A stretch of DNA of 64,000 nucleotides, taken from contig CAVXRD010000002.1 in the NCBI GenBank assembly GCA_963764165.1, forward strand, positions 3,104,001 to 3,168,000, read 5' to 3'. The notes beneath the pieces were generated by a model. That model saw nothing but the letters and a program-made list of their open reading frames with translations. It had not been told where the DNA came from and made no database searches. Each line of letters opens with the position of its first letter. Position 1 is the first letter of the stretch. This document shows, piece by piece, positions 4,679-51,927 of this stretch. This DNA is from an uncultured Verrucomicrobiae bacterium. GTDB taxonomy: Bacteria > Verrucomicrobiota > Verrucomicrobiia > Limisphaerales > Palsa-1400. A program made the translations under genes and the position numbers.

Positions 4679-4699
4679 AGAAGAAGAGGGAAGAATTTA

Positions 4700-4851
4700 T
4701 TAATCAGGAACGACCGAACTCAGGAAAGGAGGCTTGGGATCGTTGTCCGAATTATGGGAGTAATGGGAATGAGGGGAGCGATGGGAGCGAACTAACGATG
4801 CGCGTGAGACCACTTTGGCTTCTTTTCCTGAGTTCGGTCGTTCCTGATTAA
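4700..4851. repeat. Palindromic intergenic element with a perfect 28-bp inverted repeat
   Basis: TTAATCAGGAACGACCGAACTCAGGAAA (4700-4727) is the exact reverse complement of 4824-4851. The spacer contains ATGGGA repeats. A solo arm (25/27 identical) lies at 22927-22953. Confidence 0.85.
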
Positions 4852-4876
4852 AAACCCCTTCCCTTTCCCCTTCCCC

Positions 4877-9246: not shown

Positions 9247-9795
9247 ATGACTAGTTGCCCTTGCCAGCATTGCAATTCCGAACTTGAAATTGATGACCAA
9301 TTCATGGGGCAGACCGCAACCTGTCCATCGTGCGGGGCGGAAACTCGATTGGTCCCGGTCATTCGGGTTTCATTGCCAAAACCGGAGCCATCGCCCGCTG
9401 AGTCCGAGCCTGTCATTCTGAGAAGTAAAAACGTGGTCGTTACTAAGTCCCGATTTATCGTTGGTTCGAAGACTTTTTCCGTGCGCGGCATTACATCGGT
9501 TCAAGCGGTGGAAATCCCGGCGAGTTACTCCGGCCAAATTGTGGTCATTATTTTTGGAATTGTCATGGGACTGGCTGCCTTTGCAAACGATTTGCGCGGA
9601 GCCGGAGCTGTTTTGCTGGTTATCGCGCTGATGCTCTTGATCACCGGCGTCACATTGCTCTTCACAGTTAAGCCCAAATACCAGGTAGTAATTACCACAT
9701 CGAGCGGCGAGATTACTGCCTACGAGAGCCGGGACGACCAGGACATTTCAAGTGTCGTGCATGCCGTCAATGAAGCCATTGTCGCTTTGGGATGA
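9247..9795 (+). CDS. Zn-ribbon + DUF6232-like membrane protein
   Basis: N-terminal CxHC...CPSC, a 'VVVTKSRFIVGSKTFSVRGITSV' motif and two TM helices. Confidence 0.7.
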   Translation: MTSCPCQHCNSELEIDDQFMGQTATCPSCGAETRLVPVIRVSLPKPEPSPAESEPVILRSKNVVVTKSRFIVGSKTFSVRGITSVQAVEIPASYSGQIVVIIFGIVMGLAAFANDLRGAGAVLLVIALMLLITGVTLLFTVKPKYQVVITTSSGEITAYESRDDQDISSVVHAVNEAIVALG

Positions 9796-9807
9796 GAAAA
9801 CCTGTGC

Positions 9808-9957
9808 TCAACCGGAAGTAACCATGGAGGCGGTTTTCCGAGATTATGCACATTCAATGCTTCGCCCAAATTCAAGCCACGCTTGCTCTCTCCAAGCAAG
9901 CGTCCTGGCAACGGCTGGCGTGGAAATTCTCACCCACTGAAGAAAGTTCGAGGAGCC
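9808..9957 (+). mobile_element. Decayed right half of a MITE-2-like element (heptamer-module tail + degenerate TIR)
   Basis: TCAAC..GTAACC...TTTTCCGAGATTAT...ATGCTT, then sequence alignable by eye to ~11075-11173, ending CACCCACTGAAGAAAGTTCGAGGAGCC. Confidence 0.55.
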
Positions 9958-10095
9958 GGCAATTTCTCTGCATTCTCGGGGCCTTGGCCTTTTGCAGTTG
10001 AAATTCCCCTGTTTCATTTTCCTACATTGGAACAAAGGCATTTCAACGCAAGGGCGCAGGGGCGCAATCTGAGACGGATTCTTGTCCCGTCCGGA

Positions 10096-10199
10096 TGAAA
10101 TGTAGCAGTCCTGTTGCACTAATCTTGCGCTCTATCTCATTGATAATCAACAATGTAGAGGATGTGTCGGTATTTTTGAGGTCACGCATTCAATGCTTT
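10096..10199 (+). repeat. Heptamer/palindrome module, copy A (degenerate)
   Basis: TGAAA-TGTAGCA..TGTTGCA..TCTTGCG-TATCTCATTGATAATCAAC-AATGTAG...TTTTTGAGGT..CATTCAATGCTT. Confidence 0.7.
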
Positions 10200-10249
10200 A
10201 GCATATTGGTTGTGTGGTTTATTGGGTGGGAAGTTGTTAAGTAGACAAG

Positions 10250-10330
10250 ATGACGAGCAATGAATTGATCCGCTGTTACCTGTCCGAACGCTCCGAGACG
10301 GCTTTCGCCGAATTGGTCCGGCAGCACGTC
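10250..10330 (+). pseudogene. Truncated ECF sigma factor N-terminus
   Basis: MTSNELIRCYLSERSETAFAELVRQH matches the typical verrucomicrobial ECF N-terminus. Similarity stops after about 26 codons. Confidence 0.6.
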
Positions 10331-10541
10331 CTCGCGCCAGCGACAGACGGTGGCATGGCCAGGCTGTTTTGCCAGGCCGAGCTGCCGCTGGTCATTGCCG
10401 AAAATTCAAGTGACGGCGTGGTGGACGTCGGTGAAGTCATGCTTCGACCGACTCCGTAGCATCGGGGGTATCTGCGAGACACCGGGGAAGGACACGCGTC
10501 ACGCCCTGATATACCACATAAGGGTGTAATTGCACTCTTAA

Positions 10542-10603
10542 TTGACAAACAAGGCTTCAGCCTTATGCTCCTGCTTGCCGCCATCAGGGCATGTTCTTTG
10601 AAA
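10542..10603 (+). promoter_or_regulatory. Sigma70 promoter followed by a boxA-like site
   Basis: TTGACA (10542-47), 16-bp spacer, TATGCT (10564-69); TGTTCTTTGAAA at 10592-10603. Confidence 0.55.
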
Positions 10604-10607
10604 TTTT

Positions 10608-10690
10608 GCGAATGCCTGCGCCCGGGGAGCAGTTGGCTTGTTAACGGACTCCCCGGCACGGGATATAACTAAGCCGTATTCGGGCATTGC
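10608..10690 (+). ncRNA. Candidate structured RNA (three-way junction)
   Basis: Closing stem AATGCCTG/CGGGCATT, hairpin CCGGGGAG/CTCCCCGG with inner GTTGGC/GTTAAC, and hairpin ACGG/CCGT. It sits behind a promoter with no ORF. Confidence 0.4.
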
Positions 10691-10816
10691 ACCCTATTGC
10701 ACCCTTGGCTTTTCACGACAAGGATCTTCAGGGAAAAGAACGTGCGCCCAGAGGCGATGAGTGCGCAGAAGGGCACAAAGCCAAAAAAACTATGGATAGA
10801 AAGCGGACTGGCAAAA

Positions 10817-11257
10817 TGTTACCATGTGTTACCGGTCTGTTACCATTTTTGTTAGGTTCCTCGCTGTTTTCAATGGAACAAATGATGGTGCAGGCATCTT
10901 GATGAAAATTTTCAGGGAACGACGGAAAGAGGCCGCGTTTCATGCAACCCGACAGCGCGGGAAGAAATGTTGCGGGTTTGTTGCGGGTTTGTTGCTCTTT
11001 TTGTTGCCCCTTATCTCGTTGATGGTCAACCGTGTAGCGGGTGTTGCCCCTTTTTCGAGATCACACATTATACCGAGCTTTCGCCAAGCCAGTGCCAAGC
11101 CTGGATTCCAAATGGGTTGTCCCGCAGCGACGGCTAACGAGTTGTCTCATTCCACCGAAAATGGCGAGGAACCATTTGTTACCAATTATCTCGTTGATAA
11201 TCAACGATGTAACCAATGTTACTGATTTTCCGAGATTATATATATATTCGATGCTTT
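10817..11257 (+). repeat. Heptamer/palindrome module, copy B, split by MITE-2
   Basis: TGTTACC x3 + TGTTA|MITE|CC-AAT-TATCTCGTTGATAATCAACGATGTAACCAATGTTACT..TTTTCCGAGATTATATATATATT. Confidence 0.8.
10855..11173. mobile_element. MITE-2 (319 bp), carrying module copy C (10968-11072)
   Basis: TIRs GGTTCCTCGCTGTTTTCAATGGAA / TTCCACCGAAAATGGCGAGGAACC; flanks TTTTGTTA / ATTTGTTA (7/8-bp target duplication). Confidence 0.8.
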
Positions 11258-11264
11258 CCTCAGC

Positions 11265-11939
11265 CTAATTCGGATTCTGCCGGTCATTCCAAAGGACGGC
11301 TTCGCGCAAAAGTTCGACGGCGTTCTTGAGATGCAATTTCCGTTTGATGCGCGCGCAGAAAGCCTGCACGGTGCCGAGAGTCACGCCGAGTTCTTCGCCG
11401 ACCCGCTGGGTGGTGTAGCCGCGTCCCAGCAATTGAAACACCTCCAACTCGCGCCCACTCAAGGAAGCCAGGGGTGAGGCGGCCGGGGCCAGGCCGCCCT
11501 CGACCAGCTTTTCCGCCAGCAAGGCCGTCGCGCGCTCGCTCAGGTAGCGTTCGCCCCGGAGGACGCAGCGAATGGCTTCGAGAATTTTGGAAGTCACGTC
11601 GCGCTTCATCACGTAACCCCTCGCCCCGGCGCGCAAGGCCCGTTCCGCATAAAGCGATTCCTCGTGCATGGACAAGACAATGGCGCGGACGCCGGGAAAT
11701 TGCGATTTGAGCTGCGAAATCAAATCGAGCCCCGATGCGCCCTCAAGAGAAATGTCAACCACCGCCACGTCCGGCTTGGCCGCGCCAATTTTTTCCATGG
11801 CTTGCCCAACGTTTGAGGCGTCGCCGGCGATCATCAAATCAGCCTGCTGATTGATCAACTGGCTGAGCCATTCCCGAACGAGGGGATGGTCATCCACTAT
11901 AAATACGCCGCGTTTTTCGCTTGATTCTTGATTTTCCAT
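11265..11939 (-). CDS. NarL/LuxR family response regulator
   Basis: IVDDHPLVR receiver domain, LSMHEE..YAERALRAGARGY, and LSGRELEVF HTH. Confidence 0.93.
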   Translation of the reverse strand: MENQESSEKRGVFIVDDHPLVREWLSQLINQQADLMIAGDASNVGQAMEKIGAAKPDVAVVDISLEGASGLDLISQLKSQFPGVRAIVLSMHEESLYAERALRAGARGYVMKRDVTSKILEAIRCVLRGERYLSERATALLAEKLVEGGLAPAASPLASLSGRELEVFQLLGRGYTTQRVGEELGVTLGTVQAFCARIKRKLHLKNAVELLREAVLWNDRQNPN

Positions 11940-22770: not shown

Positions 22771-23012
22771 ATTTACAAGATTACCAGACCGCCAGGGAAA
22801 GCGTTTGGGTTTTTATTATGGTGTCCTTGGCATTTTTCAATGTGAAAAAGATTGCCGCAGTATAAGCGCATGCGCTTTTGCAGTCCACCCCCGGGCTTTT
22901 GTCCCGGCGACCTCATGGGATCTAAATAATCTGGAACGCCCGAACTCAGGAAAAGAGGCCACGGTCGTTTTTCAGACGATCGCGGTAATGTCGCTGCGTC
23001 GATTCGCTCGCC

Positions 23013-27569: not shown

Positions 27570-27580
27570 CTCACCGCAAA

Positions 27581-27613
27581 ACGAGGGTTCGATTCCCTTC
27601 GCCCCGCTCTCCA
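27581..27613 (+). other. Degenerate 3' fragment of tRNA-Gly (att-like scar)
   Basis: ACGAGGGTTCGATTCCCTTCGCCCCGCTCTCCA corresponds to a T-arm plus acceptor end; no 5' half is present. Confidence 0.7.
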
Positions 27614-34919: not shown

Positions 34920-35034
34920 CTAATTGAACCATTATGCAACAGTTTGCAACACACGCAAGATAAATTTTCGCCGAGTGTCTGATTCAGTCGTGGTTGGTCA
35001 TCCTTTGTCCAACCAGCCTTGATATTCTTCTCAA

Positions 35035-39992: not shown

Positions 39993-41273
39993 TCACTCTT
40001 GATTTTTCCCATCTCGGGCAAGGTGCTCTAGGGCGGAATTCGTTGGAAAGATGGAAAACCACGCCGTTGCTGCTGCTGGGGTCACCAATTCGCGATAATG
40101 CTGGAAAATCATCTGAGGTGAATTCCCAGCCTCCAACGCGACCTCCGCCGTGTTTTTGATCTGAGCCAGCCTGTAAGAGCAATATGAATGACGGAGAGCA
40201 TTACGCCGCCATTCAACTGCTGGTTTCAGTTTTGATTTGGGATGTTTAGGGTCATTTGGACGAGTGTTGTCAATTAGTCGGTATATAGCACTGGAAATGC
40301 CAATAATCTCGACGACGGGGCCTTCGCGCTTCGCGTAGGGTTTGAGCCAGGCTCGTAGGTTTGGCTGAATGGGGATCAACCGGCGCGAATTGGTTTTAGC
40401 AATGCTCGCATCGACCGTAATGTATCCTGTTTCCAAATTGACCTTGGACCAATCCAAGCGACTAATCTCTGCGCTTCTCAGTCCCGCGAATGCTCCAATG
40501 GCTAAAAAGGGCAGCAGATTATTGCTTGCCAACGAAAATAATTGTTCCAATTCCTCAGGAGTGAAGATTGCCACCTGCTCGCTTTTTATCTTCCACAAGG
40601 GAACAGAGTCAAACTCCCGCCAATCAGCCGGTAAATATTTTCTCGATTTCGCAAAAGCAAAAAGCGTTTGGACCGCCAACCGACAGTTGTTTCGAGTCCT
40701 GTTTGCGACTGGCATGGCCTGCAGCCAGTCTCTGATTTTCTCCATCGGCACGCTCGCCAAGTTGCATTGGAAATCCTTGGCGAATTTTCCGCCCCTGATT
40801 TTGAGATCTCGCAAATACAGATCGCTTAATCCCTCGTCGCGTTTGGCTTTCAACATCTCATCCAGCACCTCGGAGACGGTCTTATTGGGAAGATCGCGCA
40901 GTTTGTGCTGGGCATAATATTGGGCGACATCCACCAGTGACGCTCTCTTGGCGATCCTCTTGGCATCCCGGTATTCGAAGGCGATGGAATCAAGCGAAAG
41001 ATCGAATTCTGCCAAAGCGCTCTTGGCTCGCACAAAGGCCAGGCGGTCTTCACCAGATAATTGAATTATTTCCGCTTCCCCCTTCGACAGGCTGTTCACC
41101 ATGCTGCTTGCATGAAGTTCTGCTGCCGCTAACGATGCAAAGGCTTTGCGCTTTCGGATTGCCCCCTCGAACCAAGCCACAGTGAATGAATCACACCCAT
41201 GCGACGGTGTTTTGTAAATTGTCGCCTTCGTCTGGCCAACCCGAACAACTTTAGGGAATTCGACTTTCCTCAT
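39993..41273 (-). CDS. Tyrosine recombinase / phage-type integrase
   Basis: AGLRSAE (R), K in AKT, LRHSYCSY (second R), GNS and HYR (Y). The true start MRKVEF lies downstream of the tRNA. Confidence 0.93.
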   Translation of the reverse strand: MRKVEFPKVVRVGQTKATIYKTPSHGCDSFTVAWFEGAIRKRKAFASLAAAELHASSMVNSLSKGEAEIIQLSGEDRLAFVRAKSALAEFDLSLDSIAFEYRDAKRIAKRASLVDVAQYYAQHKLRDLPNKTVSEVLDEMLKAKRDEGLSDLYLRDLKIRGGKFAKDFQCNLASVPMEKIRDWLQAMPVANRTRNNCRLAVQTLFAFAKSRKYLPADWREFDSVPLWKIKSEQVAIFTPEELEQLFSLASNNLLPFLAIGAFAGLRSAEISRLDWSKVNLETGYITVDASIAKTNSRRLIPIQPNLRAWLKPYAKREGPVVEIIGISSAIYRLIDNTRPNDPKHPKSKLKPAVEWRRNALRHSYCSYRLAQIKNTAEVALEAGNSPQMIFQHYRELVTPAAATAWFSIFPTNSALEHLARDGKNQE

Positions 41274-41336
41274 CCTGCAGATTGTCAGGAATTGGTCAGG
41301 AAAGTCAATGTTGCCGAGGCTTTCCCAGTAAAAAGT

Positions 41337-41423
41337 TGGTGCCGACGGAGGGGGTCGAACCCACACACTCTTCCGAGTACTAGATTTTGAGTCTAGCGCG
41401 TCTGCCAATTCCGCCACATCGGC
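41337..41423 (-). tRNA. tRNA-Leu(CAA)
   Basis: GCCGATGTGGCGGAATTGGCAGACGCGCTAGACTCAAAATCTAG...GGTTCGACCCCCTCCGTCGGCACCA; long variable arm and CCA end. Confidence 0.97.
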
Positions 41424-44585: not shown

Positions 44586-44596
44586 CACCAGGGGAA

Positions 44597-44781
44597 GCCA
44601 CAGACGGACACAGATCAACACAGATTTTTGATTTATCTGCGTTGATCTGCGGCCATCTGTGGCCATTCCGATTCCCACGCCGGCAAGGGGCCGTTTAGCC
44701 GCAGATTGACGCAGATGAACGCAGATTTTCTGACGAAGCAGCCCTTTCTTCGTCTGTGTTGATCTGTGTCAATCTGTGGCT
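44597..44781. repeat. Two tandem CAGAT-type palindromic (REP-like) elements
   Basis: (C/G)CAGAT repeated at ~10-bp period and mirrored as ATCTG(C/T)G; 44597-44663 and 44697-44781. Confidence 0.85.
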
Positions 44782-44822
44782 TCAACTGGCTTATTCAGGT
44801 TCAGCCGTCGCTTCAAAATCAA

Positions 44823-50921: not shown

Positions 50922-51070
50922 GATTGGCCGCAGATTCACGCAGGTCAGGGCAGATTTTCTGGGAAGCAATGCCTTTAAAAATCAACGCAGCTCGACTGTG
51001 CCACACATGACTGAATTTGTTCCCGGCCTTCTTCCTGTCCGCGTTGATCTGCGACCATCTGGGGCCAATC
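50922..51070. repeat. CAGAT-type palindromic element
   Basis: GATTGGCCGCAGATTCACGCAG ... GTTGATCTGCGACCATCTGGGGCCAATC. Confidence 0.75.
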
Positions 51071-51106
51071 AGGTTTCTGGCGGAGCTGGAGAACCGAGCC
51101 ATCTGC

Positions 51107-51213
51107 TGAAATGTTGCCGGTTTGTTGCCACCTTGTTGCCATTTTTGTTGCCACTTAAATGTTTCGCAATCAACAGGGTAACGGATGTTGCCACTTTTTG
51201 GAGATTATATAAT
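51107..51213 (+). repeat. Heptamer/palindrome module, copy D
   Basis: TGAAA-TGTTGCC x4 (periods 11, 11, 12)...AATCAACAGGGTAACGGATGTTGCCACTTTTTGGAGATTATATA. Confidence 0.85.
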
Positions 51214-51363
51214 GATTAACACCGAGACGAGGGTTTGGCTCCCTTTGCCCGCTCCCTCGAACGACCACAGGGCGAATCCTCGTAGCGGCGAGGAGACGAG
51301 CTTTCAGATCCCTAACGATCATCGGTCTGGCGCAACGCCGGAGGATGTGGTAATCGTTGGCCG

Positions 51364-51927
51364 TTGAGCGACGTTACCCGCATTCTCGAGTCCATCGAAC
51401 ATGGCGATCCAAAGGCCGCCGATAAATTGCTTCCGTTGGTCTATGAGGAGTTGCGCAAGTTGGCGGCGGCGCGCATGGCGAACGAATCGCCCAACCAGAC
51501 GTTGCAGCCCACCGCGCTCGTGCATGAAGCCTGGCTGCGGTTGGTGGGCGACGCGAACCCCAACTTCTCCGGACGGGCTCATTTCTTCGGCGCCGCCGCC
51601 GAGGCCATGCGGCGCATTCTCATTGAAAAGGCCCGCCGCAAGCGCGCCCATCGGCACGGAGGAAACCACCAACGCGTGGATCTTGAATGTATTGAAATTG
51701 TGGGCCCCGGCGACGACGACCAACTCCTCGCCGTGAACGAGGCCCTCGACAAGCTCGCCGCCATCCACGCCGTCCAAGCCGAGGTTGTGAAGCTGCGCTG
51801 TTTTGTCGGCATGACCAATGTTGAAGCGGCCCAAGCCTTGGGCCTTTCGGAGCGCACCGCCAAGTATTACTGGACTCACGCCCGCGCCTGGCTCATCCAC
51901 GAAATCAACGCCGCCCGAGCTGCCTGA
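51364..51927 (+). CDS. ECF sigma factor, TIGR02999-like (kinase-associated)
   Basis: LLPLVY.ELR.LA, TLQPTALVHEAW and HFF.AAAEAMRRIL. Confidence 0.93.
   Translation: MSDVTRILESIEHGDPKAADKLLPLVYEELRKLAAARMANESPNQTLQPTALVHEAWLRLVGDANPNFSGRAHFFGAAAEAMRRILIEKARRKRAHRHGGNHQRVDLECIEIVGPGDDDQLLAVNEALDKLAAIHAVQAEVVKLRCFVGMTNVEAAQALGLSERTAKYYWTHARAWLIHEINAARAA

Follow-up and report, generated by a model that had tools for sequence, protein, structure and literature searches.

The 64-kb window, the whole stretch of DNA that was analysed, belongs to a genome of 7.0 Mb (G000) and carries a short repeat, hereafter called the module, which is found as copies A to D and as a scrap, copy E. The features relevant to this repeat, all on the forward strand, are the following:

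9810..9846 (+): copy E, a collapsed module scrap consisting of the right end alone (last ~25 bp); seen in the sequence, no detection with the module HMM
9847..9957 (+): right arm, including the worn terminal repeat, of an ISL3-type MITE of older date, 3' of copy E (blastn against the flanks of other modules, E 5e-10 to 8e-8; worn terminal inverted repeat judged by eye)
10098..10184 (+): copy A, a worn module with three left heptamers (nhmmer E=9e-15)
10250..10330 (+): ECF sigma-like N-terminal fragment of 27 codons, a pseudogene neighbouring the module and outside it (phmmer E=5e-4 against an ECF-like ORF of the same genome)
10813..10854 (+): left part of copy B, with three TGTTACC heptamers and the first copy of an 8-bp duplication (10847-10854); seen in the sequence
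10855..11173 (+): 319-bp ISL3-family MITE with ends GGTTCC...GGAACC, located within the fourth heptamer of copy B (ends match the only ISL3 element of the genome)
10965..11063 (+): copy C, a complete module carried as cargo of the MITE (nhmmer E=9e-26)
11174..11240 (+): right part of copy B, with the second duplication copy, spacer, two heptamers, T tract and GAGATTAT end (nhmmer E=6e-12)
51109..51210 (+): copy D, a complete module of a subfamily also found 3' of DUF3631 genes (nhmmer, genome profile search)
51224..51255 (+): worn 3' half of a tRNA-Gly(CCC), after copy D (blastn, 84% over 32 bp, E=4e-6)
51364..51927 (+): an intact gene for an ECF sigma factor, which follows copy D as a neighbour only (PF07638, E=7e-58)

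Copy B is split by an 8-bp duplication, TTTTGTTA (10847-10854) and ATTTGTTA (11174-11181) with one mismatch, that flanks the 319-bp element, and rejoining it in silico by excision of this element restores a module recognised at E=1.2e-17. The proposal of the first-pass annotation that copy C rides inside a MITE inserted into the fourth heptamer of copy B is thereby confirmed. The same annotation counted five copies: A, B, C and D were found at their places with alignments far beyond chance, but the family comprises some 104 loci genome-wide, and the partial copy E, although its last ~25 bp are followed by the right arm and worn terminal repeat of the older MITE, is a mere scrap that escapes the HMM. 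The last 62 bp of copy D show 89% identity to a gene-linked copy at G000:C2:1440676.

Other repeats were noted in the window and elsewhere in the genome. The segment 10505-10720 is a different dispersed repeat with up to 35 genome matches, which contains TTGCACCCTA triplets and whose ends match an 11-copy IS-like family. REP-like palindromic repeat families occur at window positions 4687-4864, 22927-22968, 44588-44790 and 50924-51075, and one REP-like family lies directly 3' of about ten modules elsewhere in the genome. A tyrosine integrase gene (39993-41423) overlaps the end of a tRNA-Leu(CAA) gene. Free 3' halves of tRNA-Gly(CCC) are present at window positions 27578-27603 and at G000:C2:903951, C2:863493, C2:1354695, C2:1349798 and C1:921610; several of these scattered halves are followed by an IHF-like word and one lies beside an integrase gene, and they are probably attachment scars of another element family.

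A dispersed module family

An nhmmer model built from copies A, C and D, and iterated once on 61 non-redundant copies, gave 124 matches at E<1e-3 in G000, compared with a best E of 0.26 in the reversed genome; this profile scan, proposed in the first-pass annotation, showed that copies A to D align significantly. Matches having the right end were merged into 104 loci, nearly all of which are intergenic according to crude gene calls (4594 genes defined by a hexamer score, without a standard caller). The layout of the module is fixed: AAAT precedes four TGT(T/A)(G/A)C heptamers spaced ~11 bp from one another; after a spacer whose last letters are ATCAAC come two heptamers at a distance of 9 bp, then a T tract and GAGATTAT. 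Four left-hand heptamers had been described for every copy, but copy A has three, and the two right-hand heptamers follow a 9-bp period. Heptamers are uniform within a copy, as had been noticed at the outset: in 58 copies, the fraction of identical heptamer pairs within a copy is 0.61, against 0.29 (maximum 0.35) in 1000 shuffles. The palindrome GTTGATAATCAAC, described earlier as part of the architecture, does exist in exact form in 14 of the 77 full copies, but it is not the conserved feature; the IHF consensus, allowing at most one mismatch, is matched on the left in 25/77 and on the right in 40/77 of these copies.

The module itself shows neither terminal inverted repeats nor a target duplication in flank listings inspected by eye. 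It consists of direct repeats only, and no hairpin with a pC194-like nick site was found in it, the consensus fold of 19 copies being -0.17 kcal/mol with RNA parameters. A structured RNA was considered and rejected on the same fold and on the lack of any Rfam match at E<=1 across window positions 9700-11400. Right flanks are common to members of a subfamily for up to 60 bp, and six modules, two of them linked to DUF3631 genes, are followed by a worn tRNA-Gly(CCC) 3' half.

The genes on the right-hand side of the modules are closer than those on the left (median 189 vs 415 bp) and score more host-like, and a gene start faces the right side at 76 of the 104 loci (expected 53%, p=3e-5). Copies A and D had been reported to precede ECF sigma sequences. 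These are present, as an intact gene after copy D and as the 27-codon fragment after copy A, but the link is one of chance: a module lies upstream of 1/56 sigma-like genes and of 64/4594 genes overall (p=0.55), and an ECF-specific role was rejected on this count.

About ten of the weaker profile matches belong to a TGTGAC sister family of the module, seen at G000:C4:443307, C2:2209888, C1:1171401, C1:1599251, C2:2985547 and other positions. Its members terminate on the right in a G-run, and ~70 bp further they have another array, made of AAATCTCACC repeats. A search for a cognate gene of this family found none, and a TGTGAC-variant pattern gave no match in 301 genomes of the order, G000 among them, so that this pattern is uninformative.

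Linkage of the module to DUF3631 genes

Two modules of G000 begin at the TAA of intact 447-aa DUF3631 genes (PF12307, E=1e-25 and 4e-22), whose proteins are 83% identical. The DNA common to these two gene-linked units measures 1522 bp (85% identity) and extends from ~60 bp before the ATG to the right end of the module. A third, broken DUF3631 gene is located upstream of another module, and a fourth one (40% identical) is preceded by a TGTGAC module that lies on the opposite strand. Between the intact genes dN/dS is 0.11-0.19, which, as judged from substitution rates, shows the gene to be under purifying selection.

PF12307 is present in all 100 aligned homologs, where it is the sole domain, and the invariant columns correspond to the P-loop motifs; with the alignment covered by PF12307 only, no HUH (Y2) transposase domain was found in the homologs. 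Neither a primase domain in the DUF3631 protein nor an adjacent primase gene appeared in the domain scan, the alignment and the neighbours. A single-sequence fold of the protein had a pLDDT of 38. The structure model, confident outside residues 90-191 and with an ATPase core pLDDT below 50 at 90-191, matches phage primase-helicases (best E=2e-10); searches of the PDB, by Foldseek and by sequence, returned nothing significant, the matches to the NrS-1 helicase and ORC/Cdc6 lying below significance, and PHROGs gave no match. The protein is thus predicted, from the model, to be a helicase/initiator.

A palindrome, TGGACA-N5-TGTCCA, precedes the start codon by ~25-55 bp both in the DUF3631 genes of many relatives and in several small G000 ORFs of unknown function, with sites at window positions 34995-35011 and at G000:C2:918995, C2:1567051, C4:317116 and C5:67148; it looks like a shared operator. 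The order also contains DUF3631 homologs of ~800 aa with long N-terminal extensions and short repeats within the 3' ends of their genes (L132, L133, L134 and L135, in G033, G001, G035 and G009, respectively), and these are possible primase-bearing ancestors of the solo DUF3631 genes.

The linkage extends to other genomes. Among 80 metagenomic DUF3631 loci, some of which repeat one site, 66 had enough sequence to be scored, and a module near the stop codon was found in 22 of the 47 relatives with at least 50% identity, always on the strand of the gene, and in none of the 19 relatives below 50%. In the other 25 close relatives no module could be detected near the stop codon; by eye, a few of them show variant or cut modules. 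The neighbourhoods of the DUF3631 genes differ between the 25 long loci, and none of the 76 neighbouring ORFs at these loci encodes an integrase, a primase or a transposase, one being a group II intron reverse transcriptase. In the tabulation of neighbouring genes suggested earlier, the gene for the predicted DUF3631 helicase stands as the linked gene, integrase, primase and transposase genes are missing among these 76 ORFs, and the ECF genes are there by chance.

The module pattern was found in 5 of 30 genomes of the same family (0 of the 4 that share the genus) and in 0 of 30 genomes of other families; most of these genomes are fragmented, a zero meaning not found. Four of the five positive genomes hold a close DUF3631 gene and the fifth (G013) a fragment with the module at its stop, and 11 of the 25 pattern-negative genomes of the family have only more distant DUF3631 homologs. 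Orthologous DNA for the modules was matched in none of the four same-genus genomes, and named records with the module pattern belong mostly to Verrucomicrobiota/Limisphaerales, which makes it probable that the host is a member of this group. A variant pattern, derived from the modules behind the genes of genus g10, has 40, 40, 12 and 3 copies in G013, G018, G026 and G028, respectively, and 0 copies in G000 or the other 26 genomes, where, most genomes being fragmented, zero again means not found.

ISL3 elements and the module-carrying MITE

The sole ISL3 transposase of G000 (PF01610), encoded in two frames, belongs to a 1336-bp element (G000:C4:500130-501465), which is flanked by an exact 8-bp duplication and inserted in a TGTGAC module. 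Its inverted ends are those of the 319-bp MITE, which places the latter in the ISL3 family, for which 8-bp target duplications are typical. These ends match 101 sites in G000 and none in the reversed control, and 18 copies of the MITE in the genome are young, 14 of them near full length and 4 truncated.

An 8-bp duplication with 0-1 mismatch borders 13 of the 27 end pairs listed, including those of the element in copy B and of the full element. After four outer or spurious pairings were dropped, 23 elements were left, 15 of which are inside modules, and 11 of the 13 that could be measured are inserted at the same register, the fourth heptamer. As a baseline for this targeting, modules make up 1.0% of the intergenic DNA and contain 4.5% of the TGTDRC words. 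ISL3-type ends abut module heptamers in loci of G013 and G028 too. Insertions of the MITE outside modules, at G000:C3:205878, C3:544326 and C2:1167186, lie in stretches of other short repeats or of IHF-like sequence, a hint that the ISL3 target is an architecture rather than a word.

An inward-facing ISL3 end within 200 bp is found at 28 of the 86 full modules and is absent from the other 58; hitchhiking therefore accounts for at least a third of the copies. Recombination between cargo and target modules would, on comparison of the sequences, explain solo-end and hybrid copies.

Relation to primase-helicase origins

P4-type origins have two opposed iteron sets around an AT-rich centre and are served by a protein with a primase domain or by an adjacent primase. 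Comparable two-sided regions were found among the distant matches of the module. In L051 (a record named Ca. Scalindua rubra), a two-sided repeat region, the right half of which has the module layout, begins immediately past the stop codon of the gene for an 885-aa CHC2-Toprim-DUF927 protein, and an integrase lies beside this origin. The viral contig L093, with a primase-helicase gene for an NrS-1-type protein, has a two-sided origin version, and in L084 a Prim-Pol/DUF5906 gene has a one-sided match at its 3' end. Several other distant matches are located inside genes and were discarded as chance. Viral contigs contained no match to the strict pattern and five to a looser one, one of which (L093) is an origin. 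The D5-like helicase gene of G000 is not followed by a module, and VapE has no match in this genome.

As read from these sequences, the module has the layout of a single half of the two-sided iteron origins that follow primase-helicase genes. Since the module starts at the DUF3631 stop codon and has this half-origin layout, it probably serves the predicted helicase as binding and loading site. The first-pass annotation had pointed to primase-helicase origins and had described the repeat as a non-autonomous, origin-like module with co-varying repeats; both views are supported by the DUF3631 linkage and the half-origin layout. Its parallel suggestion of integrase arm sites was not upheld, the nearest of 22 tyrosine-recombinase matches being 3.9 kb from any module.

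Origin and spread of the copies

The module very probably descends from the site behind the DUF3631 gene, and the ~100 gene-less copies are, on their sequence relationships, likely orphaned offspring of this gene-linked site. Information on how they moved came from comparison of G018 with its close relatives. At six of seven orphan modules of G018, host synteny is retained to within ~300 bp of the right end, with lineage-specific or rearranged DNA on the left, and one orphan forms the end of an island of 2.3 kb that is lacking from G026 and G028, where the sequences flanking it adjoin each other; at the seventh, by contrast, host synteny is confined to the left side. G013 twice retains the right end alone at the same place. 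A gene-bearing unit of G018 is within a 2.9-kb insert missing from G023. A paralogous search of G000 gave no clean empty site for a bare module, and one ragged replacement inside another repeat. Simple 5' truncation of a gene-bearing unit is not supported as the source of the orphans, with gene-tail remnants exceeding shuffles in 1/58 orphan flanks and 1/60 controls. None of the copies of an eight-copy 1.7-kb element lies within 300 bp of a module, and PF02486 has no match in G000.

We favour, with a probability of roughly 0.55, the reading that the module is an orphaned half-origin, spread by one-sided local copying started by the helicase and by re-insertion through host repair. The C-terminal domain of the DUF3631 protein would bind the TGT(T/A)(G/A)C heptamers, an IHF-like protein would bend the spacer while the T/AT tract opens, and the half-origin would then start local copying in one direction. 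Host repair would re-insert the module together with flanking DNA of variable length (right side 0-60 bp, left side from 0 to several kb), without target duplication; this step is assigned to host repair because the DUF3631 protein has no known strand-joining domain. A second route is visible in the sequence itself, as the 319-bp ISL3 MITE, with a complete module as its cargo, inserts into other modules, and cargo-target recombination may shuffle module halves and flanks.

This second route could in principle suffice: the module, once derived from the DUF3631 origin, might have spread only as cargo of the ISL3 MITE or other mobile DNA and then have been trimmed and recombined, with the helicase uninvolved. 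Such passive spread would fit the 18 young MITE copies that carry a module, the ISL3 end kept by 28/86 copies, solo-end copies such as C4:661168 and C2:1667192, expected from cargo-target recombination, and the orphan at C2:1888813, which shows no difference from a gene-linked module between the fourth heptamer, where ISL3 inserts, and the right end. We nevertheless consider it rather unlikely as the whole explanation: 58/86 copies lack an ISL3 end, some stand alone in gaps of 170-250 bp, which would require exact loss of both MITE arms, the scattered variants match the DUF3631 gene of each lineage, and this gene itself occurs in ever-changing neighbourhoods without a transposase.

Two further explanations are quite improbable. 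The copies could be origin-plus-attachment ends of decayed elements, integrated by a tyrosine recombinase at tRNA-Gly-like sites, in line with the tRNA-Gly(CCC) halves after six modules (two gene-linked), the integrase adjoining the L051 origin, and the occurrence in the order of the ~800-aa DUF3631 homologs with repeats at their 3' ends; yet about 98 of the 104 loci have no tRNA piece, integrases are absent within 3.9 kb of any module and from the 76 neighbours of the solo genes, and the g10 elements end in a different flank. Alternatively, the host might keep the module upstream of genes as a promoter or as a binding array for DUF3631 or a host regulator. The bias towards right-hand gene starts and their short median distance (189 bp) would agree with such a regulatory site, as would the single weak sigma70-like match of copy D and the upstream palindrome common to DUF3631 genes and a few small ORFs; against it, module positions are mostly unshared between close genomes, the pattern is absent from the four same-genus genomes, no functional class is enriched (ECF was tested), and the gene-start bias is expected if islands insert at promoter-side gaps.

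If the helicase-driven reading holds, DNA would move without a transposase or an integrase, which would contribute to the gain of islands and the breakage of synteny in soil Verrucomicrobiota. Taken further, one initiator-helicase gene and its half-origin could represent a new class of selfish DNA without a recombinase, which spreads and drags neighbouring genes along by one-sided replication and host repair, and whose orphan half-origins seed ~100 inducible copying and rearrangement sites per genome, adopted as a dedicated landing site by an ISL3 lineage; this generalisation is tentative, and we regard it as doubtful.

Comparison with known systems

The nested element resembles ISL3 insertion sequences and their MITEs in its matching inverted ends, 8-bp duplications and PF01610 parent. 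Unlike these, its lineage strongly targets one position of an origin-like repeat, and the MITE carries its own target. The literature searched, which left most subscription papers outside its coverage, held no account of ISL3 elements targeting iterons, and the present family offers a clear case of an ISL3 element aimed at one position of a probable protein-DNA complex. Compared with the attachment arms of tyrosine integrases, the module has no linked integrase (nearest 3.9 kb), and a tRNA piece at six loci only.

One-ended rolling-circle transposition of the IS91/ISCR type (PMC13181058) is alike in that no target duplication is seen and variable DNA adjoins one side of a kept end. It differs by its HUH transposase, which is missing here; the right end of the module is ragged by up to 60 bp, and no fixed target tetranucleotide was seen. 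A cargo-like left side is present at 6/7 loci of G018.

DUF3631 is the family of RepAM, the initiator of pMEA300 (PMC3218068), a protein that binds to repeats of 8 bp at the 3' end of the gene encoding it (PMC2440964). Both the protein family and the placement of several short, nearly identical repeats at the gene's 3' end are shared with the origins of pMEA300-type actinomycete integrative conjugative elements (PMC2440964, PMC3218068). The module differs in having direct repeats only, without hairpin or nick site, in starting at or just past the stop codon, in the absence of integrase, excisionase and transfer genes from its units (0/76 neighbours), and in its ~100 gene-less copies per genome in a Verrucomicrobiota-like host.

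The Rep proteins of SaPIs load at iterons right after rep (PMC9371898), and the module is similar to such satellite primase-helicase origins in that its iterons directly follow an AAA+ initiator-helicase gene and lie by an AT-rich tract. Relative to SaPI and P4 origins, the G000 module represents one of two opposed iteron sets, both of which are present in L051 and L093, and the DUF3631 gene has no primase domain or primase neighbour and lies outside any satellite.

The literature searched, again with most subscription papers outside its coverage, gave no account of solo DUF3631 units or of mass orphan origins. The matched protein-site pairs, with their natural variants, provide material for work on DUF3631/RepAM function. 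Known origins of this kind occur singly, within satellites or integrative elements; here the gene for the predicted DUF3631 helicase stands alone, and its site has reached a hundred times that number, each lineage having copies that go with its own gene.
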